Shown here: piece by piece, positions 8,049-55,378 of the stretch | Layout of the letters: each line of letters begins with the position of its first letter | Numbering within the stretch: the stretch's first letter is position 1 | Assembly: GCA_016432425.1 (NCBI GenBank) | Contig: CP066688.1 | Coordinates: forward strand, 446,211 to 510,210 | Source of the DNA: Candidatus Daviesbacteria bacterium | Lineage (GTDB): Bacteria > Patescibacteriota > Microgenomatia > Daviesbacterales > UBA10151 | DNA length: 64,000 bases | Direction: 5' to 3' | Notes under the pieces: generated by a model | Database searches by the model: none | The model's input: only the letters and a program-made list of their open reading frames with translations | What the model was told of the DNA's origin: nothing | Position numbers and translations under genes: made by a program

Positions 8049-8651
8049 ATGAAACTAATTATTGGTTTAGGGAATCCGGGGGAGAAATATATTGGTACCA
8101 GGCATAATTTGGGGTTTGTGGTGGTAGATGCGCTAATCAAGAAGTTGGATGTGGGAGGTGAGAAGCGGAATATTGAAGTGGGAAGTTGGAAATTGGAAGA
8201 AAAGTTCAAGTCAGAAATAATTAAGACACCAAATGTAATCTTAGCTAAGCCTCAAACTTATATGAATAACTCCGGTTTGGCAGTCAAACTGCTAACTGAT
8301 TATTTTAAAATTCCTCCGGAGGATATTATTGTCGTCCATGATGAGCTGGATTTGCCTTTAGGGAAAATTAAAGTTCGCAAAGGAGGAGCTGCTGCCGGGC
8401 ACCATGGGGTACAGTCCATTATTGCTGCTTTAAATTTTGATCAGTTTGTCAGGGTCAGACTGGGGATTGGAAATTTAAAAACCTTATCAGCAGAGCGAAA
8501 AGGGGCCCATGTTAATACTGATAAATTTGTACTGGAGCCTTTTATCTCTAATGAGAGAGCTAAAATTAAACACTTGATTAAACAAGCTGTTTTGGCCCTG
8601 GAAACTCTATTAGAAAAGGGTTTGGATAAAGCCCAGAGTCAGTTTAACTGA
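8049..8651 (+). CDS. pth: Peptidyl-tRNA hydrolase
   Basis: MKLIIGLGNPGEKYIGTRHNLGF N-terminus is the classic Pth signature. Confidence 0.9.
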   Translation: MKLIIGLGNPGEKYIGTRHNLGFVVVDALIKKLDVGGEKRNIEVGSWKLEEKFKSEIIKTPNVILAKPQTYMNNSGLAVKLLTDYFKIPPEDIIVVHDELDLPLGKIKVRKGGAAAGHHGVQSIIAALNFDQFVRVRLGIGNLKTLSAERKGAHVNTDKFVLEPFISNERAKIKHLIKQAVLALETLLEKGLDKAQSQFN

Positions 8652-39820: not shown

Positions 39821-39927
39821 TTGACAAAGTTTTTGTCAATTCCAATAAAATGGATAACTTCTTTAGGATTTGAGAGTTTGCTCTTCGACGAAGTCGAAGC
39901 AAAATCGAAAAAATTCGAAGAATTTTT

Positions 39928-39968
<41 letters not shown>

Positions 39969-40815
39969 TTTAAATATGCAAGTCAAAGGGATCGCAAGAT
40001 AACTGGCGGACGGGTGAGTAATGTATAGGAATCTACCTTGAAGTGGGACATAGCTTCTCGAAAGAGGAGGTAATTTCCCATGTGAACGCAAGTTCAAAGT
40101 CGTAAGACGCTTTAAGATGAGCCTATATTCTATCAGCTTGTTGGTGGGGTAATGGCCTACCAAGGCGACGACGGATAGCTGGTCTGAGAGGATGGTCAGC
40201 CACAATGGCACTGAGATACGGGCCATACACCTACGGGTGGCGCAGTTGGGAATTGTTGACAATGGGCGAAAGCCTGATCACGCGACGCCGCGTGGAGGAT
40301 TGAAGGCCTTCGGGTTGTAAACTCCTTTTATGTGGGAAGATTATGACGGTACCACACGAATAAGCACCTGCTAACTACGTGCCAGAAGCCTCGGTAATAC
40401 GTAGGGTGCAAGCGTTATCCGGATTCATTGGGCGTAAAGAGTTGCGTAGGCGGCTCGGCGCATTCTGCTTGAAAGCCTCTGGCTCAACCAGAGATTTGGG
40501 CAGAAGATGGCCGAACTAGATGGTTTGGGAGGGTGCTGGAACCTGTAGTGTAGCAGTGAAATGCGTTGATATTACAGGGAACACCAAAGGCGTAGGCAGG
40601 CACCTAACAAACCCATGACGCTGAGGCACGACAGCTAGGGGAGCGAAGCAGATTAGAGACCTGCGTAGTCCTAGCCGTAAACGATGTCCGCTAGTTACCC
40701 CGCCTTTGGCGGGGCGACGACGCTAACGGAAAAACCTCACCAGGGTTTGACATGCAGATGCTAAGCCTATGAAAGTAGGCCTCCTTCGAGGGTTCTGCAC
40801 AGATGCTGCATGGCT

Positions 40816-41633
40816 AATCCCGATTGAATCGGGATGATGGCCGCTCCTTAAGTAATTAAGGAGAAAAATAACCAACCCAAAACGGTGAAGCCCTACTTTT
40901 GGCGTAAGCCAACAAGCAAGATTTCTTACTTGATTTTCGTATTACTTTCGGGTAATGTGAAATTAAGGGGTAATACCGTGGGAAGCTGGTTAGTGTGAGG
41001 TTAGATGTTTGAGGTCGGAAGATGGATAAAGAGATTGGAAGTTTGAAATTGGTAGGATACAATCAAAGTAATGTGATCCAAAGTTTTAAAGATCTAAAAG
41101 TATATCAGGAATCTTATGAATTGGCTTTAATAATTAACAGAGCAATTTTGAGATTGCCTAATAGCGAGAGATTTGATTTGGTAGATCAGATGCGAAGAGC
41201 GTCAAAATCTATTCCAGCAAATATTGCTGAAGGATATGCTAAAAGATTGTCTGAGAAAGAATTTAAAAGATATCTTTTATCAGCAATTGGATCGTGTAAT
41301 GAAATGGTTGTACATATCAGTTTTGCAAAAGATTTAGGTTTTTGGAAATCTGAATTTTGTGAGGATTTACTTAAACGATATGATATCGTAGGTAAACAAC
41401 TTACAAGATTGTTGCAAAATTGGAAAGCCTATCCAACTTCTAAAGTCTAATTTCACAATCTACCTTCTAATTTCTAACATCTAACTTCTATCTAACATAG
41501 CCCCGTAGAGACTGATTCCGCCAGCTGGCGGATGAGAATAGCCAAATGAGGTTATTCAGACGGTTGGCTCCCTACCTTAAATAAAGGGGGAGAAGGTATA
41601 GTCCATGCTCCTAGTAATAGGCAGATTTACATG
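40816..41633 (+). mobile_element. Group-I-like intron in the 16S rRNA between GCATGGCT and GTCGTCAGCTCG
   Basis: Exon sequence GCTGCATGGCT|GTCGTCAGCTCG is restored exactly when 40816-41633 is removed. The 5' exon ends in U and the insert ends in G. The 3' part shares blocks with 23S intron 3 (ccccgtagagact, gtatagtccatgc, ttacatg). Confidence 0.65.
41022..41450 (+). CDS. Four-helix-bundle protein of the 23S-rRNA-intervening-sequence family
   Basis: DLKVYQESYELALIINRAI...FDLVDQMRRASKSIPANIAEGYAKRLSEKEFKRYLLSAIGSCNEMVVHISFAKDLGF matches the IVS four-helix-bundle family pattern; encoded inside the 16S intron. Confidence 0.75.
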   Translation: MDKEIGSLKLVGYNQSNVIQSFKDLKVYQESYELALIINRAILRLPNSERFDLVDQMRRASKSIPANIAEGYAKRLSEKEFKRYLLSAIGSCNEMVVHISFAKDLGFWKSEFCEDLLKRYDIVGKQLTRLLQNWKAYPTSKV

Positions 41634-42238
41634 GTCGTCAGCTCGAGGCGTGAGCTGTACCCTTAAGTGGGACATCGAGCGCAACCCGCACCGTATGTTA
41701 AATAATCCATACGGAACAGCCCCAGTTTTTACTGGGAAGGAAGGTGCGGATGACGTCAAGTCAGCACGGTTCTTACACCCTGGGCTACACACACCCTACA
41801 ATGGCGAAGAACAACGAGTTGCAAGCTGGTAACAGCAAGCTAATCTCTGAAATTTCGCCTCAGTTCAGATCGAGGGCTGCAATCCGCCCTCGTGAAGTCG
41901 GAATTGCTAGTAATCGCGGATCAGCAGGCCGCGGTGAATACGTTCTCGGGTCTTGTACACACCGCCCGTCAAGCGAGCAAAGTTGGGGGCGCCCGAATGC
42001 CTATGTATGTAGGCAGAAGGTGAAACCAGCGATGAGCGCTAAGTCGTAACAAGGTATCCCTAGCCGAAGCTGGGGATGGATCACCTCCTTTCTGGAGATT
42101 AGGTCAAACTAATGATTACTTAAATAATGTATCGTTATGGTATGTCATAGTTCGCAGTAGTTTGATCCATTGATCACGTATGTTCACGCATATGATGATA
42201 GAGAGTTTGAATATTCTCTCTTTAAAGAAAAATATTCC

Positions 42239-42262
42239 CCACCACTTTTTTGGTATTAAAGT
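42239..42262 (+). promoter_or_regulatory. 16S rRNA 3' processing-stem strand
   Basis: Complement of 39797-39820 (see above). Confidence 0.7.
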
Positions 42263-42374
42263 TTTTTTGGCCATTTTTGCGCCAACCGCAGATTTTTATG
42301 AAGTCTAGGGAGCAAAAAGGCCAGTTCGACCTTATACTGTTTATTTGCAAAGCAAATGACAGTTCAAGCTATGC

Positions 42375-42740
42375 TTATACTCGTAAATTTCTAATTTCAG
42401 TAGAAGAGGAGAGCTGGTAAATTTTCTCTCCCAGTTTGTAATCAAAAACAAATCTCGGTAGAATTTTTACTTTTATTCCAGCTTTTAAAAAATCTTTTCG
42501 GTGATTTTTATCCATTGGATCAGCTCGATACCAAGTATTAGTATTAGAATCTTTTAATTTCAACTGTTTTTTAAAATATTTTACCCAATTTTCTGGGGAA
42601 TTTTGATCTATTAATGGAAGTATTTGATATGGTTTAGTAGTGGTTTTTAATTCCTCCTGAAGCTTCTGGACTCTTACTTGATAAGTAGACAGACTTGGAT
42701 CCTGAGTAGAACCAATACCAATAATAATTCCTATTGTCAT
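42375..42740 (-). CDS. Hypothetical protein (possible C-terminal extension or partner of the LAGLIDADG endonuclease)
   Basis: 121-aa ORF whose start overlaps the stop of the upstream LAGLIDADG gene (ATGA); no motif. Confidence 0.3.
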   Translation of the reverse strand: MTIGIIIGIGSTQDPSLSTYQVRVQKLQEELKTTTKPYQILPLIDQNSPENWVKYFKKQLKLKDSNTNTWYRADPMDKNHRKDFLKAGIKVKILPRFVFDYKLGEKIYQLSSSTEIRNLRV

Positions 42741-43399
42741 TCGAGAAATTTAGCCTTTCTTTCAAGATATAATTTGCAATTAGGGTAGTATATAAAATTC
42801 AAAAGTTTCTTAGTATCTTTCTTTGCATATTCTAACTTCCATTGGTTGCCATTACCATAAGAACATATTTTCCTTGGGAAAAGTTCTAACTCTTTGGTTA
42901 ATAAATCTCTCAATGAATTCAAAAACAATGGACTTCCGGAGGTAAAATTACATCTAAGATCAGTTTGTTTGCGATGATCTTTAGTTCTTAAATAAGTTGT
43001 AAAAAATACACTTCCATCGCCATCAAAATAGCCCCTAATAAAATCAGCTAGAAATTCTTTTTGGATTTTAGGTAACCTAATTACTAGACTTTTTTTTCGG
43101 AGGCCACCTAATAAAAGTAAATCTTTGTATAAAATTTTAGAATGTACGATTAGGGTAGAAGATTTTTCAAGCTTTCCTTTTCTGCGATAACGGAAAATAG
43201 GGGAATTAGAATTCAGAACCCCTTTTACTTGCTGTAGGATTGATTCATCTAGCGAAGAGAAAGTAATTCTATAAGATCGCTCGTGTCTCATATATCCATC
43301 AGCTAACCAGTATCCAAAAACATAGGCCATATCTGGGGACCATTTTGAGAAGAAATTTTCGTTCAAGGTGTATTTTCTAGAGTGGTATTTAAGAAGCAT
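42737..43399 (-). CDS. Free-standing double-motif LAGLIDADG homing endonuclease
   Basis: Two LAGLIDADG motifs, YVFGYWLADGY and FIRGYFDGDGSV, in a 220-aa ORF between the 16S and tRNA-Cys. Confidence 0.8.
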   Translation of the reverse strand: MLLKYHSRKYTLNENFFSKWSPDMAYVFGYWLADGYMRHERSYRITFSSLDESILQQVKGVLNSNSPIFRYRRKGKLEKSSTLIVHSKILYKDLLLLGGLRKKSLVIRLPKIQKEFLADFIRGYFDGDGSVFFTTYLRTKDHRKQTDLRCNFTSGSPLFLNSLRDLLTKELELFPRKICSYGNGNQWKLEYAKKDTKKLLNFIYYPNCKLYLERKAKFLE

Positions 43400-43444
43400 T
43401 ACTTTATATTAGCCAAATAAAATACGAAAAGTCAATATTTTGGG

Positions 43445-43516
43445 AGGTGCAGGCGGGAATCGAACCCGCGCATCGAGGTTTTGCAGACCCCAGCGTTTCC
43501 ACTTCGCCACTGCACC
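43445..43516 (-). tRNA. tRNA-Cys (GCA)
   Basis: Reverse complement folds as a cloverleaf: acceptor GGTGCAG/CTGCACC, anticodon loop CTGCAAA (anticodon GCA), T-arm GCGGG-TTCGATT-CCCGC. Confidence 0.8.
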
Positions 43517-43560
43517 AAGTATTGGCTTATTTTAACACGAACTTCTGGTAGAATACATTT

Positions 43561-43980
43561 ATGGCAAAAGTAATTCGAGTAGTCGGAGCAGTAATTTTTA
43601 ATCCCAAAAGTGATAGTTATTTTGTGGGCCAGCGGGGGAAAAATAAAAAAGTTCCTTTAAAATGGGAATTTATTGGGGGAAAAGTAGAAACAGGAGAAGA
43701 TTTGTTGCGAGCTATTCAGAGAGAATTTAAAGAAGAAGTGGGGATAAATATTAAGGCACTAAGATCTATTAATAAAAGTCAGTTTAATTATGGAGGGGAA
43801 GTGGGTTTGATTGAGGTTAATTTTATTGAATGCGAACTTTTTAAAGATGAGCCGAATTTTGACCCGGAGGTTTATGAAATCTGCAAATGGGTTAAAAGGG
43901 GAGAATTAGCTAATCTGGATTGGGTAGAAGCAGATAGAGAGTTTGCTTTAAATTTAGCCAAAAATGAGGTAAAATATTGA
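43561..43980 (+). CDS. Nudix hydrolase (MutT-like)
   Basis: Nudix box GGKVETGEDLLRAIQREFKEEVGI. Confidence 0.8.
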   Translation: MAKVIRVVGAVIFNPKSDSYFVGQRGKNKKVPLKWEFIGGKVETGEDLLRAIQREFKEEVGINIKALRSINKSQFNYGGEVGLIEVNFIECELFKDEPNFDPEVYEICKWVKRGELANLDWVEADREFALNLAKNEVKY

Positions 43981-43987
43981 AGTTTTA

Positions 43988-44059
43988 GGGCGCGTAGCTC
44001 AGTGGTAGAGCGCTTATCTGATAAGTAAGAGGTCCTTGGTTCAATCCCAAGCGCGCCCA
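43988..44059 (+). tRNA. tRNA-Ile (GAT)
   Basis: GGGCGCG acceptor, GCTCAGTGGTAGAGC D-arm, anticodon loop CTGATAA (anticodon GAT), T-arm CTTGG-TTCAATC-CCAAG. Confidence 0.85.
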
Positions 44060-44085
44060 CTTAAGTTCATGTTATGATTTAATTA

Positions 44086-45093
44086 ATGCAAGTTGTTTCT
44101 TCAGACCTTGTTTTAGGTAAGAAAGTTTTGCTCCGTTTAGACTTAGATGTTCCCCTTCGACAAGTCGGAGATGCCCGACAGGGTACTCAGGGCCATGGCC
44201 AATTTGAGGTAATTGATGACTTTAGATTAAAAGCCGGGCTGGAAACAGTGTATCTCTGTTTAGAACATGCCAAACAGGTAATTATCATGGGACATATTGG
44301 CAGGCCAATGGGAAGGGAGGTCCCAGAGCTTTCCGTAAAACCTATTTATGGTTGGTTTTTAAGTCAGGGTTTAGCTCCCCACCTCGAAGGTGGAAGGCTA
44401 AAGTTGTTGGAGAATTTAAGGTTTGAGGAGGGGGAAGAGAAAGCGGATTTAGGATATGCCAAGGAATTAGCTAAATATGGGGATTTTTTTGTTAATGAAG
44501 CTTTTGCCTCTTTCCATCCAGCTGCCTCTACCACAGTTTTGCCTACATTACTGCCTCACGCGGCAGGGTTACATTTTGCCAAAGAAGTAGAAAAATTAAC
44601 CAAAATCAGAATTAATCCACATCACCCCTTGGTAGTAATTGTGGGAGGGGCCAAAAAGGAGGATAAAATCCCCTTTATCCAGGAAATTTCTAAGATAGCA
44701 GATCAGGTTTTAGTAGGAGGGAAAATGGTTTCGACTGCTTCTAACTTCACCGCCAACGTACTAGTAGCTACTTTAAATGAAGATGGTTTAGATATTACTG
44801 AGGAAACAATAAATTCCTGGAAGGAAATAATTAAAGCGGCCGGGATGATAGTTTGGAACGGACCCATGGGGAGGGTGGAAGAAGGTAAAATAGCCGGCAC
44901 TAAGGCAGTGGCAGAAGCGATCAGTGAGTCTTGGGCGGAAGTGATAATTGGTGGAGGAGATACGGTGGGTTTTTTAGCAAAAGAGGGACTGCTGGAAAAA
45001 TTCGAACACCAAGCTTTCATCTCTACCGGTGGTGGGGCTATGTTAGAATTTTTAAGTAAAGGGACTTTGCCCACCATAGAGGCCCTGAAATGA
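44086..45093 (+). CDS. pgk: Phosphoglycerate kinase (compact form)
   Basis: N-terminal KKVLLRLDLDVPL and HIGRP substrate-binding motifs and C-terminal GGGDT nucleotide-domain motif; 335 aa. Confidence 0.75.
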   Translation: MQVVSSDLVLGKKVLLRLDLDVPLRQVGDARQGTQGHGQFEVIDDFRLKAGLETVYLCLEHAKQVIIMGHIGRPMGREVPELSVKPIYGWFLSQGLAPHLEGGRLKLLENLRFEEGEEKADLGYAKELAKYGDFFVNEAFASFHPAASTTVLPTLLPHAAGLHFAKEVEKLTKIRINPHHPLVVIVGGAKKEDKIPFIQEISKIADQVLVGGKMVSTASNFTANVLVATLNEDGLDITEETINSWKEIIKAAGMIVWNGPMGRVEEGKIAGTKAVAEAISESWAEVIIGGGDTVGFLAKEGLLEKFEHQAFISTGGGAMLEFLSKGTLPTIEALK

Positions 45094-45665
45094 ATTTAAT
45101 AATTACTAATCTTTATTTGTTTGCCATGGCCACAGTGCTGGCCCTTTTGGAAATCCAAATTGAAGGAGCTCATGGTTGGGCGAAAAATCTACCAACCTGG
45201 AGGCCGCATCCCGGCCATCCTTTAGCTAAAATTTATGCAAAGTTTATGTCCGGGAAAGAGCTAACTGGCTATCACAGCGCCATGTTTATCTTTGTGGTTT
45301 TAATCTTCCATCTGCCTTATGTATTTGGTCTAACCTTTACCCTGGAACACTGGTTACAAACACTCTCTTTATTTTTTATCTTTATAGCCTTATGGGATTT
45401 TTTGTGGTTTGTCTTTAACCCCTACCATCCTTTGAAAAATTTTTCTAAAAATAACCCTAATCACAAAGCTTTCTTTTTAGGGTTGCCTCTAGATTACTAC
45501 TGGGCGATTGCTTTTTCTTTCTCACTGGCAGCAGTTGCACAGTTTATTTTTGGATTTAGTGGTTTTATCTCCTGGTGGTTGGGGAATTTTGGGTTATTTT
45601 TAACAGAAACTGTGGGGGCTATTTTATTTTCTTATCTGGTTTTGGATATAGATAATTGGTTCTAA
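45090..45665 (+). CDS. Integral membrane hypothetical protein
   Basis: 191 aa with ~5 hydrophobic helices; overlaps the pgk stop. Confidence 0.45.
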   Translation: MNLIITNLYLFAMATVLALLEIQIEGAHGWAKNLPTWRPHPGHPLAKIYAKFMSGKELTGYHSAMFIFVVLIFHLPYVFGLTFTLEHWLQTLSLFFIFIALWDFLWFVFNPYHPLKNFSKNNPNHKAFFLGLPLDYYWAIAFSFSLAAVAQFIFGFSGFISWWLGNFGLFLTETVGAILFSYLVLDIDNWF

Positions 45666-45686
45666 ATTTGCTACTCTAAAGGGGCC

Positions 45687-46727
45687 ATGAAAATTGCCAT
45701 TAATGGCTTTGGCCGGATTGGCCGAACTGCCTTTAAGATTATTATTGATAAATATTTGGATCAAATTGAAGTGGTAGCTGTCAACGACCTCACTGATAGT
45801 AAAACCCTGGCCCATTTACTCAAATATGATTCTAACTACGGGATTTGGAACCATGAGGTTTCTGGTGATGGTGATACTTCAAGTCCGCTCAGTACAGGAA
45901 ATATCATTGTGGATGGGAAAAGTTTTGCTGTTTTAAAAGAATTAGAACCGGAGAAACTCCCCTGGAAAGATTTAGAGGTGGACATAGTAATTGAGTCAAC
46001 CGGCAAATTTACCGATCAGGCCGGGGCCCAAAAACACTTAAACGCTGGAGCCAAAAAAGTAATTATTTCTGCCCCCAGCAAAGAGGGGGATTCGGGTGAT
46101 AATACCGAGGTGGCCACCTATATCTTGGGAGTTAATGCCGCTAAATACCAAAATGAGGCCATAATTTCCAATTCTTCCTGTACTACCAACTGCATTGCCC
46201 CCATTGCCGCGGTGATGAACCTCAAATTTGGTATAGTCAAGGCCATGATGACCACCATTCATGGCTACACTGCTGATCAAAACCTGCAGGATGGACCCCA
46301 CCGGGATTTAAGAAGAGCCAGAGCAGCCTCAGTTAATATTATCCCCACCACTACCGGAGCAGCTATTTCCACTACTAAAACTATTCCTGAGCTGGAGGGT
46401 AAATTTGATGGAGTGGCTTTGAGAGTACCGGTCCCAGTGGGGTCAATTTCTGATTTTACCTTTCTCCTGGCGAAAAAGGTGACCAAAGAAGAAGTCAATA
46501 ATGCTTTTAAGGAAATTTCCCAAAACCCTTCTTTTACCAAAATCTTAGCCGTGACAGAGGAGCCAATTGTCTCTTCCGATATTGTGGGAAGATCTGAGTC
46601 AGCCATAGTAGATTTATCTCTAACTCAGGTAGTAGATGGGGATTTGGTCAAGGTTTTTGCCTGGTATGATAACGAATTTGGGTATTCCAACAGGTTAGTA
46701 GAACAGATAATAAATGTAGGTAAATAA
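45687..46727 (+). CDS. gap: Glyceraldehyde-3-phosphate dehydrogenase
   Basis: MKIAINGFGRIGR NAD-binding start and catalytic SCTTNC motif. Confidence 0.9.
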   Translation: MKIAINGFGRIGRTAFKIIIDKYLDQIEVVAVNDLTDSKTLAHLLKYDSNYGIWNHEVSGDGDTSSPLSTGNIIVDGKSFAVLKELEPEKLPWKDLEVDIVIESTGKFTDQAGAQKHLNAGAKKVIISAPSKEGDSGDNTEVATYILGVNAAKYQNEAIISNSSCTTNCIAPIAAVMNLKFGIVKAMMTTIHGYTADQNLQDGPHRDLRRARAASVNIIPTTTGAAISTTKTIPELEGKFDGVALRVPVPVGSISDFTFLLAKKVTKEEVNNAFKEISQNPSFTKILAVTEEPIVSSDIVGRSESAIVDLSLTQVVDGDLVKVFAWYDNEFGYSNRLVEQIINVGK

Positions 46728-46866
46728 TACTAAAACCTGTATAACATTTCGTTATACGATCGTACACGAATTGTGACGGATTTCAGATGTCAATCTAATC
46801 CACCCCCAGGTGTTCTGATTTTATTTAACTATTGACATTGGTTGGGTTTTTATATAAAAAGTAGCC

Positions 46867-48060
46867 ATGGCAAAAACATACCACCTACAGAAACAAAAAC
46901 ACTATGCCCGAAACTACCAGGACCTGCGCAAAGGTTGGGACGATAATTTGGAGCCTTTAAAACCCCTGGATGTTAACAAAATCAAAAACTTTTCTGATAT
47001 GGCAGAGGCTATGTCCCAAACTGCTTTTGGAGGCAGAATTGTGGGGGAGGCCGTGGATACGCTGGTGGCCATGAATAAAGATAAAGCAGCATTCACGGTC
47101 ATGACAGTGGCCGGGGCCATGACTGTAGCCAAGATGGGCCTGTTGATTTGCGAGATGATCGATCGGGGTATGGTTCAGGCTTTGGTAGTGACAGGGGCTT
47201 TAATGGCCCATGGGTTGGCTGAGGCAGCCGGTATGACCCATTTTAAAGCTCCCCAGGACATGTCTGATGATGAAATGTATCTGGCCGGTTATGACCGGGT
47301 TTATGACACAGTAGAGTTGGAGAAAAACCTGGATGATACGGAGGAGATTTTATTTGAAATTTTAGAAGGAATTCCGGAAGAGAAAGTTTTATCCAGCAGG
47401 TTAATTACTGAAGAAATTGGTAAATATTTAGTTAAGAATTCAGTTCACCGGGGTGTTTTAAAAAGCGCTTATCTAAAAGGGGTACCGGTTTATGTCCCGG
47501 CCTTTACTGATTCTGAGTTAGGATTGGATTTAGGCATGTACAATCGGGCCCGAGTAAAAAAAGGTTTACCACCACGCCGCTATGATCCGTTAATTGACTT
47601 AGAACACTACACCAAACTGATTTGGCGCCAAAAGAAGCTGGGGATTTTTACTATTGGGGGAGGAGTACCCAGAAACTTCGCCCAACAAGTTGGCCCTTTT
47701 ACAGATTTAGTACATCAGCGAGGTTTGGACAGTCCAGAGGATACTGGCAAAAGGACTAATGGTAAAAAAACTTACCAACCGGTGATGTTTACTTATGGAC
47801 TAAGGATCTGTCCGGAGCCGGTTTACTGGGGTGGATTATCCGGCTGCACCTATTCAGAAGGGGTATCTTGGGGAAAATTTGTACCCGAAAAAATGGGAGG
47901 CAGATTTGCGGAAGTTCCCTCGGATGCTACTATTATCTGGCCTTTTATTTTAAAAGCTGCGCTGGAGAGATTAAAGGTTAAAGATATGAGAAAAAAGGTT
48001 AAGTCTGGGAAAAAAGTTATTAAAGAAATAGATGATCAAATAATGGTTAATTATAAATAA
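46867..48060 (+). CDS. Deoxyhypusine synthase-like protein (homospermidine/deoxyhypusine synthase family)
   Basis: IGGGVPRNFAQQ resembles the DHS GGGVPKNF motif; 397 aa; adjacent to agmatinase. Confidence 0.65.
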   Translation: MAKTYHLQKQKHYARNYQDLRKGWDDNLEPLKPLDVNKIKNFSDMAEAMSQTAFGGRIVGEAVDTLVAMNKDKAAFTVMTVAGAMTVAKMGLLICEMIDRGMVQALVVTGALMAHGLAEAAGMTHFKAPQDMSDDEMYLAGYDRVYDTVELEKNLDDTEEILFEILEGIPEEKVLSSRLITEEIGKYLVKNSVHRGVLKSAYLKGVPVYVPAFTDSELGLDLGMYNRARVKKGLPPRRYDPLIDLEHYTKLIWRQKKLGIFTIGGGVPRNFAQQVGPFTDLVHQRGLDSPEDTGKRTNGKKTYQPVMFTYGLRICPEPVYWGGLSGCTYSEGVSWGKFVPEKMGGRFAEVPSDATIIWPFILKAALERLKVKDMRKKVKSGKKVIKEIDDQIMVNYK

Positions 48061-48189
48061 TCCGGCTCGTCTAGCCGCAAAGTACAACTGCACCGTTTAC
48101 TTTGGCTGGTTTAGACTTCGTCGTCTCTGGAATTATTTCTGTAATAATGCGTAACCCAAAATTTTATGCCTGCTTTAGCAGGCTCAAGA

Positions 48190-49077
48190 TTATCTTATCT
48201 CTTTAATTAATGAATAACCAATAATCTTATATGCTAATTTGGCGGCCAGAAAGTTTGGGGCAGAAATTCCCGGCAAAGGAGACAGCTCTACAATATCCAG
48301 TCCCACCAAATTCCTTCTTTTGGCTACAGCTTTAATTAAGTCTAACACTTGATAAAACGATAACCCACCCGGTTCCGGAGTGCCGGTGGCAGACATGATG
48401 GCCGGATCCAGCCCATCCAGGTCAAAGCTAAGGTAGACATTTTGCTTTAAAGTTTTAAGGATTTTTTTCATGGGCAGATCCGGTGCATAGAAGATATATT
48501 TTTCTCTCTTGCTTTTCTTGATAAAACCCATTTCTTCCTCACTGACACTTCTAATTCCTACCTGGGTAACCGGTAATTTTAGGTCTCTGACCACCCGGCC
48601 CATTACACAGCCATGATGGAATCTGGTCCCTTCATACTCATCCCGCAAGTCAGTATGGGCATCAATTTGCAAAACCGATAAATTTTTAAATTTTTTGGCT
48701 GCCGCCCTAATGGGGCCCAAGGCAATAGAGTGTTCTCCTCCTAAGGTAACGGGGAATTTACCATCTGCAAACAGTTGAGAAACAACTTGGTCAATTTGTT
48801 CCACCACCTCTTCCGGGGAATTTTTAGAAGGAGCCAGTGGATCTAGGGTATAAATTCCTAGTTTAGAGGAAATGTCTAATTTAAGTTCCAGGTCAAAAAG
48901 TTCTAAATGGCGGGAGGCTTCAATGAGTGCCTGGGGGCCAAATTTAGTACCCGGGTTCCAATAAGTGGTAGAGGAGTAAGGGACAGGGAATATTATGGCC
49001 TTTGCTTTTTCATAAGTTTGATCTGTCAGTCCGGTAAAATTAAAAGGTTCACCAGCGTCAAATTTGGGTTGTTTCAT
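48190..49077 (-). CDS. Agmatinase/arginase family ureohydrolase
   Basis: Arginase-family metal-binding motifs GGEHSIALG, DAHTDL and SFDLDGLDP. Confidence 0.8.
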   Translation of the reverse strand: MKQPKFDAGEPFNFTGLTDQTYEKAKAIIFPVPYSSTTYWNPGTKFGPQALIEASRHLELFDLELKLDISSKLGIYTLDPLAPSKNSPEEVVEQIDQVVSQLFADGKFPVTLGGEHSIALGPIRAAAKKFKNLSVLQIDAHTDLRDEYEGTRFHHGCVMGRVVRDLKLPVTQVGIRSVSEEEMGFIKKSKREKYIFYAPDLPMKKILKTLKQNVYLSFDLDGLDPAIMSATGTPEPGGLSFYQVLDLIKAVAKRRNLVGLDIVELSPLPGISAPNFLAAKLAYKIIGYSLIKEIR

Positions 49078-49284
49078 GAAGCTATTATATTAGATATATT
49101 GAGGTTGACAATAGGCTAATCATTTGTTAAACTCTGTCCAGTGTTTAATCAGATGAGAAGCAACGCACCATTAACTTAACTCTTTGCGCGCTGAGGGTCT
49201 TCCTGGTGCGGAAGATAAAAAGCCTTAGCGTTGTATCCCTCAATTAAATTTTTAAAATAATATTGGATTTCTGGAAAGTGAATC

Positions 49285-49356
49285 GGGCCCGTAGTTCACT
49301 GGTAGAACGTGTCATTTGCAATGACAATGTAGGAGGTTCGATTCCTCTCGGGTCCA
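49285..49356 (+). tRNA. tRNA-Ala (TGC)
   Basis: Acceptor GGGCCCG/CGGGTCC with the G3:U70 alanine identity pair; anticodon loop TTTGCAA (anticodon TGC); T-loop TTCGATT. Confidence 0.85.
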
Positions 49357-49682
49357 CATTAGGTAGGGAATAGTTAATTAGCGTATAGCGTATAGTTAGA
49401 TTTCTTTAACTAAACGCTAAACGCTAGCGAACTAAACGCTAGTTAATTTGCACTTTGAAATGTGAATACGTATATTTTGGACTTTTTAGGCCTACCGCAG
49501 ATTTGTTTATGTAGTTTGTCAACGAAAAAGTCCATTTCGGCCGCTTGGGTCGTAGTGGACAATTTGGCAGAAAACGTAAATTAACAGATTTAGGTACGTG
49601 CCAAATTAGTCCAAAGAATTGAGAAGGCCAAATTAAACCCCGATTTAATCGGGGTTCATGAGCCAAAAATACTCAATACTTC

Positions 49683-49702
49683 GATTTCACTCAGTATTGT
49701 AC
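49683..49702 (+). promoter_or_regulatory. 23S rRNA 5' processing-stem strand
   Basis: cgatttcactcagtattg is the reverse complement of caatactgagtgaaatcg at ~55133-55150, 3' of the 23S. Confidence 0.65.
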
Positions 49703-50205
49703 TGAGCGTAAATTGAATGTACAACATTAATGCATACGGTGGATGCCTTGGTCGAAAGTACCGATGAAGGACGCACTTGACCGCGATAGTCTGCGAGGAG
49801 CTGCCAAGAAGCTTTGATCCGCAGGTTTCCGAATGGGATAACCCCTCCTTTTTTGGGGGATCCTGTCATGAATACATAGTGGCAGGAAGGGCACGCACTG
49901 AACTGAAACATCTAAGTAAGTGCAGGAAAAGAAATCAACAGAGATTCCCCAAGTAGCGGCGAGCGAAACGGGAACAGCCTAAAGTTATTTGCGCTTCGCG
50001 CAAGTGAAGACAAATAACGGGTAGTGGGGTCTGTAATATGGTATCAGATGAGGATAGCTGAAATGTCTGGAAAGATATGCCAAAGAACATGATAGCTGTG
50101 TAAGCAAAATTCAAATCTGGCCTAACGGATACCCGAGTAACTCAGGACACGTGTAATCCTGGGCGAATCTGTGGCGACCATGCCATAAGGCTAAATATAC
50201 TTTCG

Positions 50206-50245
<40 letters not shown>

Positions 50246-50841
50246 AAGGGCGAGATGCCCTGTGAAATAGTACCTGAAACCGTATGCTGACAAGCAGTGG
50301 GAGCTGGAGGCTAGATGTTGGACGTTAGAAGCTGGAAAATATCTAGCATCTAATTTCTAACTTCTAGCTTCTAGTAACCGCGTGCCTATTGAAGAATGAA
50401 CCGGTGAGTTATCGTTATTTTCAAGTCTAAGCAAGTTTACTTGTGCAGGCGCAGTGAAAGCGAGGGTTAATAGCCCGCATGCCCTGAGTTTATCGAAGGG
50501 TAAGAAGATGACGTTAGACCCGAAACCGAGTGAGCTAACCATGTCCAGGGTGAACCCGCCTTAATCGGCGTGGGGAGGCCCGAACCCGTATCTGGATCAA
50601 AAGGTTGGGATGAGGTGTGGTTAGGGGTGATATGCCTAACGAACTCGGAGATATAGGGGTAGAGCACTGGATGGTCTTTCCGCCGCAAGGCGGGAGATCA
50701 ACCAAACTCCGAATACTACTGCGATTATCTTGAGGAGTCAGTCCGATCCGGCTAAGCGGAGCGGGCCTAAGGGAAACATCCCAGATCAATAGCTAAGGTC
50801 CCTAAAACAGGTTAAGTGTTAAAGGTAGTCTTGATCCTTAT

Positions 50842-51776: not shown

Positions 51777-52533
51777 GAGATTCGTTGCCTTAGAAGTAAA
51801 AATCCGTGAAAGCGGATGGTGTGTTTTTGAAATTCTGCTATATGCTGGAAACTCTGTAGTATCCTAAGCTAGTTATTGATTTTTGGTAAAATTTCGGGTA
51901 ATACTGAAATAATGTCTAATTTGATAACTAATAATGTTCTAGGTGCAGACAATCAGCAGGAAAGACTAGTGGAAATTGGTTGGATAGTTGGTTTTGTAGA
52001 TGGAGAAGGTTGCTTTTCAACTGGAATTGTTCAACAAAATGATCGTCCCGGAAGAAAAGGATACAAACTTCGTTATCAAGTATTCTATGAATTTGCAGTA
52101 ACTCAAGGAGCAAAAAGTATTGATTCTCTTGAGAAAATACACAAATACTTTGGAGTAGGTAGCGTAGTAATTAATAGACGATATGATAATCATAAAGAGC
52201 ATTTATATCGTTATATTGTTAGAAAGAAGGAAGATTTGTTGAATGTAATAATTCCTTTCTTCCAAAAGTATCATTTGCAATCTTCTAAGCAAAAAGATTT
52301 CGAAAAGTTTGTCCAAATTGTTAGTCTAGTTGATCAAAAAAGGCATCTAGAAGCGGATGGATTAATCGAAATATTAAAAATTGCTGAAACCATGAACCGA
52401 CAAAAATCCCGCCAAGATCTAATTAGAATCCTCAGAGACTAATACGCAGAAGTCCAATGAAAATTGGACAAGATAGAGTCCGAACTTTATGGCGACATAA
52501 AGAGTCTAGGTTTATCCTAGGAATAACATTTTT
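51777..52533 (+). mobile_element. 23S group I intron 1 (insertion near E. coli ~1923, GGT|AGCGAAATTCC)
   Basis: Exon 1 ends ...ataactgttctatggt and exon 2 resumes aagcgaaattccttgtc; the ~757-nt insert contains a LAGLIDADG ORF. Boundary uncertain by 2-3 nt. Confidence 0.6.
51876..52442 (+). CDS. LAGLIDADG homing endonuclease (intron-encoded)
   Basis: IVGFVDGEGCF LAGLIDADG motif; 188 aa inside intron 1. Confidence 0.8.
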   Translation: MIFGKISGNTEIMSNLITNNVLGADNQQERLVEIGWIVGFVDGEGCFSTGIVQQNDRPGRKGYKLRYQVFYEFAVTQGAKSIDSLEKIHKYFGVGSVVINRRYDNHKEHLYRYIVRKKEDLLNVIIPFFQKYHLQSSKQKDFEKFVQIVSLVDQKRHLEADGLIEILKIAETMNRQKSRQDLIRILRD

Positions 52534-52654
52534 AAGCGAAATTCCTTGTCTGGTGAGTTCAGACCCGCACGAAAGGTAGAACGACTTAGCGACTGTCTTG
52601 AGGATAGACCCGGCGAAATTGCAATGGCTGTGAAGATGCGGCCTTCCCATACTT

Positions 52655-53042: not shown

Positions 53043-53924
53043 ACAAATGTGTCCTGTCCCGATATATAATGAAATCGGGACGATAATGTGGCTAATAACG
53101 GTGAAACCTATCAATTGGTGGTTTGGTCTTACCAAATGCATCGAGACAATTAGTAGGCAATACCGTGGGAAGTCGAAGGTATGGACAAGATACAAAAGGC
53201 AATAGTTATTGGAACTATTTTAGGAGACGGTTTTTTGCAAAAAACTGGCAAAAATAATGCTCGTTTAAGGCTAGAACATAGTTTAAAACAGCAGGATTAT
53301 CTTCTCTGGAAGTGTCAAATTTTAAATAATTTCTTTCAGAAAAAGCCAAAGATTTTAACAAGAACCAATCTGAAATTTGGTAAAAGTTACCAATATATCA
53401 GAAACCAATCCTATTCTGGTTTGGAGTTTGGAAAACTACATCAACTTTTTTATGTTGATGGTAAAAGGGTTGTCCCAAATGAGATATCCAAACTTCTCAA
53501 AAATCCAATGAGTTTGGCTGTTTGGTTTATGGATGATGGGTATTACTACTTTAGAGATAAAATAGCTTATATCTATTTACCTGAACTAGACTCGGATTCA
53601 ATAAATAACTTATTAATTGCTTTGCGAATGAATTATGGTTTATCTCCTCAACTAAAAATTAAAAAAAGAGGGGAATATGTTTTAAACTTTAGCGTAAAAG
53701 ATACAGCAAAGTTAATTCAAATAATTAAACCATATATCATAAAATCTATGTCCTACAAATTACCTTTTGACCCCGTATCGACTGAACCTAGTAGCAAAGA
53801 GTAAATATCATTTATTCTTGGGTGAGATGTGAGGTTAAATCTTGCATCATATGCCGCACTCCAGCACCAAATTGGTGTTGGATGAAGATATAGTCAGTAC
53901 TAACAGTGATGTTAGATTTTTATG
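53043..53924 (+). mobile_element. 23S group I intron 2 (insertion in CCCCGGGGAT|AACAGGCT, E. coli ~2449)
   Basis: Removing 53043-53924 restores CCCCGGGGATAACAGGCT exactly. The upstream exon ends in U and the insert ends in G. Confidence 0.7.
53181..53804 (+). CDS. Double-motif LAGLIDADG homing endonuclease (intron-encoded)
   Basis: Motifs IIGTILGDGFLQ and VWFMDDGYYY; 207 aa inside intron 2. Confidence 0.8.
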   Translation: MDKIQKAIVIGTILGDGFLQKTGKNNARLRLEHSLKQQDYLLWKCQILNNFFQKKPKILTRTNLKFGKSYQYIRNQSYSGLEFGKLHQLFYVDGKRVVPNEISKLLKNPMSLAVWFMDDGYYYFRDKIAYIYLPELDSDSINNLLIALRMNYGLSPQLKIKKRGEYVLNFSVKDTAKLIQIIKPYIIKSMSYKLPFDPVSTEPSSKE

Positions 53925-54068: not shown

Positions 54069-54792
54069 TTAGTAGTTGAGAATTTTTCGACTATTGAACA
54101 GTTTGAACCCGAGGTTTAAGACATCAAAATTACGGCGGCGCAGTACAGCAATGTATTGTGTAAAGCTGATTCATATCGGTGAAATCCTGATGTAAGGTTG
54201 CATAGCAACCTGTCATATGTTAGGATAATACCGAGGGAAATTGTCCATGGTTAAATTACTTTCTGAAGTTAAAAAAGCTTACATAGCAGGTTTTTTGGAT
54301 GGAGATGGAAGTATTTATGTTAGAGCAAAACCTAACTCTGATTACAGATTTGGTTTTCAAATTGCTCCCTACATAATTTTATTTCAATCTTCCAAAGAAA
54401 AAGAGAAATTTACAGAGCTTTGTAAGTTAATTGGTTTTGGGTATATGAGAGAAAGAAAAGATGGAGTTTTAGAATATACTATCAATAAGATAGCAGATAT
54501 TCGAGAATTCTTGAAAGCAATATATCCATTTTCTATTTTAAAGAAAAGACAGATAGAATTAATGTTAAAAATTCTGGATGCCAAGGAAAAAATAGAATCA
54601 GAGAGTGATTTTCAAGCTCTTTTAGAATTAGTTGATTCGTATAGAAGCTTAAATTATTCTAAAAAGAGAATTAACCGTGTATTAACCCCGTAGAGACTAC
54701 AAATCAGCCATCCTGAGCGAAGTCGAAGGATGAAAGTATAGTCCATGCCTTTAGAATAAGCAGAGCTTTTCTGCGAATAGAGGAATTACATG
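54069..54792 (+). mobile_element. 23S group I intron 3 (insertion in GGGTTCAAACCGT|CGTAAGACAGG, E. coli ~2593)
   Basis: Exon junction matches the conserved GGGTTTAGAACGTCGTGAGACAG block. The insert ends ttacatg (terminal G) and shares 3' blocks with the 16S intron. Confidence 0.7.
54241..54693 (+). CDS. LAGLIDADG homing endonuclease (intron-encoded)
   Basis: IAGFLDGDGSIYV LAGLIDADG motif; 150 aa inside intron 3. Confidence 0.8.
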   Translation: MSMVKLLSEVKKAYIAGFLDGDGSIYVRAKPNSDYRFGFQIAPYIILFQSSKEKEKFTELCKLIGFGYMRERKDGVLEYTINKIADIREFLKAIYPFSILKKRQIELMLKILDAKEKIESESDFQALLELVDSYRSLNYSKKRINRVLTP

Positions 54793-55261: not shown

Positions 55262-55378
55262 AGCCTCGGTGGTTGGAGCGGTAAGGTTCCACCTGATTCC
55301 ATCCCGAACTCAGTAGTGAAACTTACCAGCGGGGACGATAATGCATCCGCAAGGTTGCGTGAAAATACCTCACTGCCG
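55262..55378 (+). rRNA. 5S ribosomal RNA (3' half divergent)
   Basis: ccacctgattccatcccgaactcagtagtgaaac matches the universally conserved 5S helix II/III-loop C region. I could not pair the termini convincingly, so the ends are approximate. Confidence 0.5.

Follow-up and report, generated by a model that had tools for sequence, protein, structure and literature searches.

A candidate group I intron at position 1060 of a Daviesbacteria 16S rRNA gene, with a probably mobile intervening-sequence-type cassette in its P6a loop

The 16S rRNA gene of a Candidatus Daviesbacteria bacterium (assembly GCA_016432425.1) is interrupted by an insert of 818 nt whose ends resemble those of a group I intron, and which encodes a protein of the family best known from the intervening sequences (IVSs) of 23S rRNA genes. 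The locus raises the question of whether the insert is a self-splicing intron, an unspliced IVS, or one element nested in the other. The window analyzed here is the whole stretch of 64,000 nt that contains this gene (contig CP066688.1, positions 446,211 to 510,210, forward strand). Insertion sites are named S for 16S and L for 23S, followed by the E. coli position (e.g., S1060 and L2593), and the three-digit labels L001 to L090 denote fetched comparison loci, which are mostly metagenome contigs. Based on the analysis below, the insert is considered likely to be a group I intron between U1060 and G1061, in which the tip of P6a holds an independently mobile IVS-type cassette.

The 5' exon of the 16S rRNA gene ends in ...GCTGCATGGCT at 40815, and the 3' exon begins with GTCGTCAGCTCG at 41634. 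The initial annotation had claimed that removing 40816-41633 restores the universal 16S junction; excision indeed rejoined the 16S sequence exactly, and the boundary cannot be shifted because the first base of the intron (A) differs from the exon G and its last base (G) differs from the exon T. When aligned to the E. coli rrnH/rrsH sequence, the insert mapped to the 5' strand of helix 34, where it separates U1060 from G1061, and not near position 1056 as had been proposed. The Rfam match to small-subunit (SSU, bacterial 16S) rRNA spans 39922-42091. The S1060 arrangement was found again in at least four distinct contigs and two metagenome-assembled genomes (MAGs). The same 16S intron was present in a Daviesbacteria MAG (L001) in a protein scan of species-representative genomes, and three further S1060 variants (∼78-88% identical) came from a metagenome scan; TGCATGGCT followed by the guide sequence GATGGCCG could serve as a search signature for this intron. 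The predicted elements of the intron and its exon partners are as follows.

40816..41633, + strand: candidate group I intron (IA-like), 818 nt, at 16S position 1060/1061 (junction, fold, weak match to Rfam RF00028)
40811..40815, + strand: 5' exon strand of P1, UGGCU, pairing with GGCCG at 40839-40843; conserved in all four S1060 introns
40818..40834, + strand: P1 extension hairpin, UCCCGA-uugaa-UCGGGA (minimum free energy, MFE, fold)
40833..40843, + strand: internal guide sequence; GAUGAU pairs with 3' exon GUCGUC (P10), GGCCG with 5' exon UGGCU (P1)
40844..40863, + strand: P2 hairpin (RNAalifold and MFE)
40872..40877, + strand: 5' strand of P3, CCAACC, partner GGUUGG at 41562-41567 (RNAalifold)
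40882..40979, + strand: P4 with the enclosed J4/5 (GAA) and P5 with three extension hairpins (RNAalifold and MFE)
40980..40993, + strand: 5' strands of P6 (GGG) and P6a (CUGGUUAG), partners at 41492-41504 (RNAalifold and folds)
41492..41507, + strand: 3' strands of P6a and P6 (CUAACAUAG, CCCC) and J6/7 (GUA) (RNAalifold and MFE)
41508..41513, + strand: 5' strand of P7, G(A)GACU with a bulged A, partner AGUCC at 41600-41604; guanosine-binding helix (sequence reading)
41517..41557, + strand: P7.1 (41517-32) and P7.2 (41536-57) hairpins between P7 and P3' (RNAalifold and MFE)
41562..41567, + strand: 3' strand of P3, GGUUGG (RNAalifold and cross-site covariation)
41568..41592, + strand: P8 hairpin (RNAalifold)
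41593..41604, + strand: J8/7 (AAGGUAU) and 3' strand of P7 (AGUCC) (Rfam alignment)
41608..41633, + strand: P9 hairpin (41608-24), 3' tail and terminal G at 41633 (Rfam alignment and RNAalifold)
41634..41639, + strand: 3' exon strand of P10, GUCGUC (sequence reading and RNAalifold)

The termini are group I-like, as had been suggested: the last exon base lies in a splice-site U.G pair (U40815.G40839), the insert ends in G41633, and the P1/P10 guide is contiguous, with GAUGAU (40833-40838) running directly into GGCCG (40839-40843). Guide columns 29-36 were independently paired to the 3' exon by RNAalifold, and GAUGGCCG was invariant across the four S1060 introns. The P1 extension is replaced by UCCGCC/GGCGGA in locus L012, a compensatory change, and is absent from locus L011. 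According to the RNAalifold consensus of the four cassette-less S1060 introns, P2, P3, P4, P5 with its extension, P6/P6a, P7.1, P7.2, P8, P9 and the guide/3' exon pairing are formed, and compensatory changes were observed in 17 of the 87 predicted pairs. When the cassette was removed from the window intron, the unconstrained MFE fold yielded the same helices. Three compensatory pairs were found in P2, in which the strands CUCCUUAA/UUAAGGAG of the window correspond to CUCCGAUA/UGUCGGAG in the homologs, and three more in P9. The closing pair of P4 (ACGGU 40882-86 with ACCGU 40975-79) changes from A-U to U-A in sibling introns (UCGGU...ACCGA), and the P8 hairpin is made by three unrelated sequences (CUCCCUACC.., CAACAUUCA.. 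and CCCCCUACCC..). Across sites, P3 takes at least nine different sequences, every one of them compensated. With P3' restricted to its expected position, cognate P3 pairings exceeded non-cognate ones (mean 4.95 versus 3.72, Mann-Whitney p 1e-5), and the same test without positional restriction separated the two poorly (5.15 versus 4.57). The P7 pairing (G[A]GACU/AGUCC) is backed by conservation and by the match of its 3' strand, together with J8/7, to the Rfam group I consensus GAAGAUAUAGUC. Subgroup IA introns are recognized by the P7.1/P7.2 hairpins between P7 and P3'; both hairpins are retained in the homologs despite different sequences, and they indicate that this is probably an IA-type intron. 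The group I core could thus be modelled, supported by compensatory changes both among the four S1060 introns and among siblings at other sites, and the insert has a predicted architecture that is complete for group I: a P1/P10 guide, P2-P9, the P3/P7 pseudoknot, P7.1/P7.2 and the terminal G.

The inner part of the intron differs in kind from this scaffold, and its elements are as follows.

40997..41488, + strand: IVS-type cassette, ∼490 nt, at the tip of P6a; purine-rich heptad-repeat 5' arm, open reading frame (ORF), pyrimidine-rich 3' arm
40997-∼41056 and ∼41425-41488, + strand: 5' and 3' arms of the cassette; the 3' arm includes the last codons of the ORF
41073..41450, + strand: four-helix-bundle protein gene, 125 aa, GTG start (PF05635/TIGR02436; Avd/S23p family)

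A region of 511 nt around the cassette folds at -149.8 kcal/mol (z -7.2) into a G.U-rich stem of ∼45-50 bp, and the many G.U wobble pairs are a pointer to a structure that forms in RNA. Over 12 cassette copies, 44 stem pairs are conserved, and the changes are mostly from G.U to A-U or G-C. Tandem Repeats Finder detected a period of 7 nt at 41459-41490. The same periodicity was found in both ORF flanks of 60 family members (loci L003-L090, including classical IVSs and intergenic copies), in which the match was 0.42 at lag 7 and 0.37 at lag 14, versus ∼0.26 at other lags and within the ORF; it also occurs in the classical helix-45 IVSs of 23S genes that do not resemble those of the candidate phyla radiation (CPR). 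The heptad units approximate GYTRGAR, a consensus partly biased by rotation of the units to a reference. Cassette arms in group I hosts are 84-89% identical to those in group II-like hosts, against 24% identity in the adjoining outer 30 nt; the similarity of the cassettes ends sharply at the stem base. In cargo-free relatives (the L2500 intron of L025, and L036/L037), a short P6a hairpin stands at the position of the cassette. As in classical IVSs, inverted repeats make a long stem round the element; its site, the tip of an intron P6a, is not the classical one at the tip of 23S helix 9, 25 or 45.

The ORF at 41022-41450 gave a full-length match to PF05635 (E 2e-29, 102.4 bits versus a cut-off of 33.8) and a match to TIGR02436 (E 2e-28, 98.7 bits versus a cut-off of 24), and its closest solved relative is Xanthomonas XCC0516 (PDB 2GSC, E 5e-16). 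The initial annotation had described a 142-aa protein of the 23S-IVS family. The family assignment holds and the length does not: the ATG at 41022 sits within the stem arm and is out of frame or stop-blocked in the other copies that have it, and the start that is conserved among copies is the GTG at 41073, from which the protein is 125 aa long. Between copies of the cassette ORF, dN/dS was 0.04-0.10, which points to strong purifying selection on the protein. Exact-sequence look-up of the 142-aa, 125-aa and M-start versions returned none present in the collection, and PADLOC gave no match. PF05635 was the sole Pfam match of the ORF, with no homing nuclease (LAGLIDADG, GIY-YIG or similar) in the S1060 intron, and there is no further ORF of at least 100 aa inside the intron on either strand. 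The intron has no endonuclease and therefore no encoded means of homing. A scan of the 64-kb window, which did not extend to template/variable repeats, found no YxDD motif in ORFs of at least 150 aa, and the window therefore holds no candidate reverse transcriptase by this measure.

The cassette is not confined to S1060. Its proteins are 82-91% identical at the group I sites S1060, S327, S1080 and L2511 and at the group II-like sites S1396 and S1402, and 56-68% identical at S1398, S1498, L2603 and L1931; in other bacteria, the classical IVS site at 23S helix 45 holds relatives of 43-53% identity. The group II-like assignment rests on matches to RF01998 (51.9 bits in L001) and RF00029 (34.3 bits in L019, ending at the 3' end of the insert), and for the S1396 and S1402 inserts it agrees with Tsurumaki et al. 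2024 (PMC11270868). In the S1498 introns the cassette sits in P8 and not in P6a. In a Gottesmanbacteria MAG (L003, 3870-4425), an ORF of 52% identity with arms of the same type is flanked on both sides by protein-coding genes and has neither rRNA nor an intron in its vicinity. ORF identity is apparently decoupled from host relatedness. Between L019 (S1396) and L023 (S1080), the ORFs are 96% identical in nucleotide sequence and the 5' halves of 16S 83%; for the window and L019 these values are 83% and 76.5%, and for L012 and L036 they are 65% and 95%. One 23S gene (L025, 1970-3057) contains two group I introns, an ORF-less one at L2500 and a cassette-bearing one at L2511, with 11 nt of exon between them.

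Homologous scaffolds that share a site give a direct view of cargo exchange: at S1396 the scaffold carries a LAGLIDADG_1 ORF in L016 and the cassette in L019, and at L2657 it carries LAGLIDADG_1 in L025 and the cassette stem alone in L002. The solo stem of L002 (4918-5040) is an ORF-less heptad hairpin in P6 of the L2657 intron, and it probably arose by ORF deletion because the last ∼30 nt of the ORF are retained. ORF-less purine/pyrimidine heptad hairpins were also found in P5 of the S1498 intron of L036 (2235-2365) and in the 16S rRNA of L023 (1341-1377), between E. coli positions 173 and 227. The window itself contains a further example.

50296..50376, + strand: ORF-less hairpin of ∼80 nt replacing 23S helix 25 (a classical IVS site); arms similar to those of the cassette

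The arms of this hairpin match those of the cassette at 88% over 33 nt (E 1.5e-5) and 79% over 33 nt, and it may be a remnant IVS stem. Three other arm-like matches in the window (8141-8199, 1424-1445 and 20152-20173) were set aside as chance, being ordinary or coding-looking sequence with no evident hairpin.

The 23S rRNA gene of the same window is also interrupted, by the following inserts.

54069..54792, + strand: 23S intron 3 at L2593, with a LAGLIDADG_1 ORF at 54241-54693; core of the same sub-lineage as the 3' domain of the 16S intron
53043..53924, + strand: 23S intron 2 at L2449, with a LAGLIDADG_2 ORF at 53181-53804; its P4-P6 is the nearest in-window relative of the 5' domain of the 16S intron
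51785-52534: first 23S insert, at ∼L1931, LAGLIDADG_1; boundaries approximate

The initial annotation had reported that the 3' domain of the 16S insert matches that of 23S intron 3, and this was borne out. Two 13-mers, CCCCGTAGAGACT (41501-41513 and 54686-54698) and GTATAGTCCATGC (41596-41608 and 54736-54748), occur in the window solely at these paired positions (0.04 occurrences expected by chance for each), and the P9 hairpin and the terminal ACATG align between the two introns. A profile of the S1060 3' domain found 54715-54762 in 23S intron 3 with nhmmer (E 1e-5), in keeping with membership of the same sub-lineage, and the 5'-domain profile found 53096-53173 in 23S intron 2 (E 0.011). In the window and the fetched loci, the core signature GUAGAGACU...UAUAGUCC occurs at S1060, S1498 and L2593, and the signature GUAACGACU...UAUAGUCU at L2511, L2500, L2657, S327 and S1080. 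Because both signatures occur in both rRNA genes, movement of introns between the SSU and large-subunit (LSU) genes is a reasonable inference. The earlier proposal that one lineage had moved between these genes and swapped its ORF is thus supported by the shared cores and the cargo exchange at single sites, with the refinement that the mobile unit seems to be mainly the stem-plus-ORF cassette and not the whole intron. The ∼L1931 insert contains AAGAUAGAGUCC, a J8/7-like motif; the simplest exon alignment leaves it with no terminal G, and Rfam gave no group I match for it at E<=1. The boundary ambiguity of the L1931 inserts in L042 and L043 is 2 nt.

In Rfam searches, the 23S rRNA gene starts at 49722 and the 5S rRNA gene lies at 55265. 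The Rfam LSU alignment claims model positions 1-2925 yet breaks off within intron 2, at 53093; in a BLAST comparison with E. coli 23S, the window aligned out to 54981 (E. coli position 2782). The 7.6 kb between the 16S and 23S genes (42092-49721) contain three tRNA genes and several protein-coding genes (e.g., a NUDIX hydrolase at 43561-43980), so the genes do not form a compact rrn operon. Two features of this interval are given here.

42737-43399, - strand: free-standing LAGLIDADG_3-type ORF, 220 aa (E 1e-12), between 16S and 23S
43445-43516, - strand: tRNA gene, with the LAGLIDADG_3-type ORF immediately downstream

On the reading favored here, the intron would be transcribed as part of the pre-rRNA and excised in the usual pair of transesterifications, with the guide 5'-GAUGAU-GGCCG-3' aligning both exons via P10 and P1, and helix 34 of the mature 16S rRNA would accordingly be intact. 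We infer from the sequence that splicing of the S1060 intron occurs; the protein would then be translated from the excised intron RNA and act on its own heptad-repeat stem. The cassette stem would unite the two P6a halves, so that the ribozyme core could still fold. In the cassette, the heptad repeats (∼GYTRGAR and its complement) would close a loop encoding the 125-aa Avd/S23p-family protein. Such a cassette would land in the terminal loops of structured RNAs (in group I introns P6a or P8, in group II-like inserts the place usual for an ORF, and rRNA helices) and also in intergenic DNA, would move between distantly related hosts, and would take the position at which related scaffolds of the same site hold a LAGLIDADG gene. 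Later it could lose its ORF and leave a solo hairpin.

Several observations weigh against this reading. The RF00028 score of the window copy was 18.2 bits (E 0.049), and the gathering score of 50 was not reached. P7 and P1 are invariant and therefore give no covariation signal. Covariation in the cassette stem is sparse, with two compensatory pairs, which is attributed to the recent origin of the copies. The single-sequence AlphaFold model of the protein is all-helical with a poor predicted local distance difference test score (pLDDT 59). The cassette encodes no mobility enzyme, and no target-site duplication was seen. Finally, the comparison consists mostly of metagenome contigs, at least one of them chimeric, and the single-contig assignments of S327 and S1080 and some identities could be affected. 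As for the Rfam group I model, against which the initial annotation had proposed to check the insert, the score fell below threshold, but the J8/7-P7-P9 portion was aligned well (GAAGGUAUAGUCC), and only the 3' part of the insert aligns to RF00028. The model under-scores the window copy because the 490-nt cassette splits the intron core. Other introns of the fetched loci scored 55 bits (L031), 50.3 bits (the L2500 intron of L025) and 35.4 bits (the L2657 sibling in L002), and the L2500 intron carries the same conserved core motifs.

A more far-reaching version of the same idea is put forward tentatively and is on balance doubtful: the "23S IVS" would be an autonomous mobile hyperparasite cassette that targets the loops of structured RNAs, displaces the homing-endonuclease genes of the group I and group II-like introns it enters in CPR bacteria, and spreads horizontally by means of an Avd-like protein recognizing the GYTRGAR stem, possibly through an RNA intermediate. 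If it were true, the cassette would represent a new class of mobile element without a transposase and an extra stage in the cycle of gain, decay and loss of homing endonucleases.

The strong purifying selection on the protein could also mean that it is a domesticated splicing cofactor, a maturase or RNA chaperone kept for efficient splicing of the host rRNA. LAGLIDADG proteins often double as maturases, and Avd is known from the literature on diversity-generating retroelements (DGRs) as a nucleic-acid-binding pentamer. This alternative is unlikely, since close and distant relatives of the protein are also found where there is no intron, namely in intergenic DNA and at the classical helix-45 sites of 23S; the same protein is found with unrelated ribozyme classes, and ORF-less solo stems persist in apparently intact introns.

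The likeness between sites might instead be explained without an independent cassette, if whole introns homed or reverse-spliced together with their ORF and the similarity reflected recent transposition and gene conversion. The group I hosts do have a common core (P4, P6 and P7 motifs), the similarity between the window 16S intron and the L2511 intron reaches ∼75 nt upstream of the cassette, into P5-P4', and P6a itself resembles one additional heptad repeat. However, P1-P2 and P7.1-P9 of these two introns cannot be aligned, the S1498 introns hold the cassette in another helix, and the same arms recur in group II-like inserts and in intergenic DNA between flanks whose identity is at random level. 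Transposition of whole introns is accordingly rated as quite unlikely to account for the pattern.

The possibility that the whole 818-nt insert is an unspliced IVS, cut by RNase III without ligation and leaving a fragmented 16S rRNA, draws on the ORF family, on the long inverted-repeat stem typical of classical IVSs, and on the lack of an Rfam group I call at threshold. It is considered very improbable: the long stem closes the inner 490 nt only and not the ends of the insert, those ends make a canonical P1/P10 guide with the U.G pair and terminal G, P3-P9 are present and covarying, and the site is in helix 34, within its conserved 5' strand, and not at a helix tip.

Although locus L014 shows that contigs can be wrongly joined through the repeated cassette, it is scarcely credible that the window arrangement is such an assembly artefact, given that both flanks of the window insert are 16S, that the P3 and P6a strands separated by the cassette can pair with each other, and that distinct contigs and MAGs share the S1060 arrangement. 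On one side of its cassette, L014 (1-1989) has the 5' exon of 16S with the 5' half of the S1060 intron; on the other side come the 3' half of an intron of L2500 type and exon sequence of 23S. Its P3 strands are mismatched (best complement 2 bp), and the contig was most likely assembled as a chimera via the cassette common to both introns. The shared cassette produces chimeric rRNA contigs in metagenome assemblies.

The group I intron with an IVS-type cassette in P6a links two phenomena that have usually been treated separately, the self-splicing rRNA introns and the RNase III-processed IVSs. The results suggest that the IVS is a cassette in its own right, which spreads horizontally and whose protein is strongly selected, and two long-open questions, the role of the IVS/S23p protein and the spread of IVSs, become testable. 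For the life cycle of introns, a possible occupant of the cargo position other than a homing endonuclease is shown. Literature searches on PF05635, TIGR02436, 23S_rRNA_IVP and IVS repeats returned no account of such cassette behavior, and the modular behavior appears to be undescribed in the literature searched.

The closest published record is the survey of Tsurumaki et al. 2024 (PMC11270868). Its Table S4 lists 18 23S_rRNA_IVP ORFs in CPR 16S inserts and four in 23S inserts. The initial annotation had regarded the pairing of this cargo with a 16S insert as worth documenting; with 18 cases already tabulated, the pairing is not new. An Rfam group I class is given for 3 of the 18 cases in 16S and 2 of the 4 in 23S, and the remaining 15 in 16S carry the entry "no hit to group I or II intron". 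According to its authors, the IVP ORFs are dispersed among sites at which other families are the commonest, and an earlier study is cited for the same protein families. These inserts represent the same phenomenon as the window insert and are probably the same elements. The window insert scores 18.2 bits yet folds as a predicted complete group I intron, and covariance-model surveys may therefore under-call such introns, as the 15 of 18 "not intron" entries would illustrate. The portions of the survey drawn on here do not describe the cassette boundaries, the heptad stem, the spread across ribozyme classes, the host-incongruent identity or the solo stems. What is added is the complete group I fold that Rfam under-scores, and an IVS-type cargo that appears to behave as an independent, selected and horizontally moving unit in places where sibling introns hold LAGLIDADG genes.

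Among the known systems, the group IA td intron of phage T4 loops its ORF out of P6a. The S1060 intron resembles it in having P7.1/P7.2 between P7 and P3' and an ORF in the terminal loop of P6a; it differs in that its cargo is not a homing endonuclease and its host gene is a bacterial 16S rRNA gene. To the LAGLIDADG rRNA introns of CPR bacteria and organelles (L1931, L2449 and L2593), it is linked by sibling ribozyme cores within one operon and, in other loci, by homologous scaffolds that share a site, whereas it has no endonuclease of its own. PF05635 is homologous to the DGR protein Avd, a four-helix bundle (PDB 2GSC and 4DWL; PMC10053308), and the window protein likewise belongs to this homologous four-helix-bundle family; unlike the Avd gene of a DGR, the window gene lies in a stem-loop within an rRNA intron, in a window with no YxDD-bearing ORF of at least 150 aa. 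The classical IVSs of Coxiella burnetii and Leptospira are elements of the 430-nt class with terminal inverted repeats and an S23p ORF, and they are excised by RNase III (PMC4990558). The cassette is similar in size (430-490 nt), in the stability of its inverted-repeat stem (∼-143 kcal/mol in Coxiella versus ∼-150 kcal/mol here), and in the same-family ORF in the loop. The Coxiella ORF is decaying, whereas that of the window cassette is apparently under strong purifying selection. A classical IVS replaces the tip of an rRNA helix, and its excision by RNase III fragments the rRNA; the cassette described here is nested in an intron and, in contrast, is expected to be spliced out whole.

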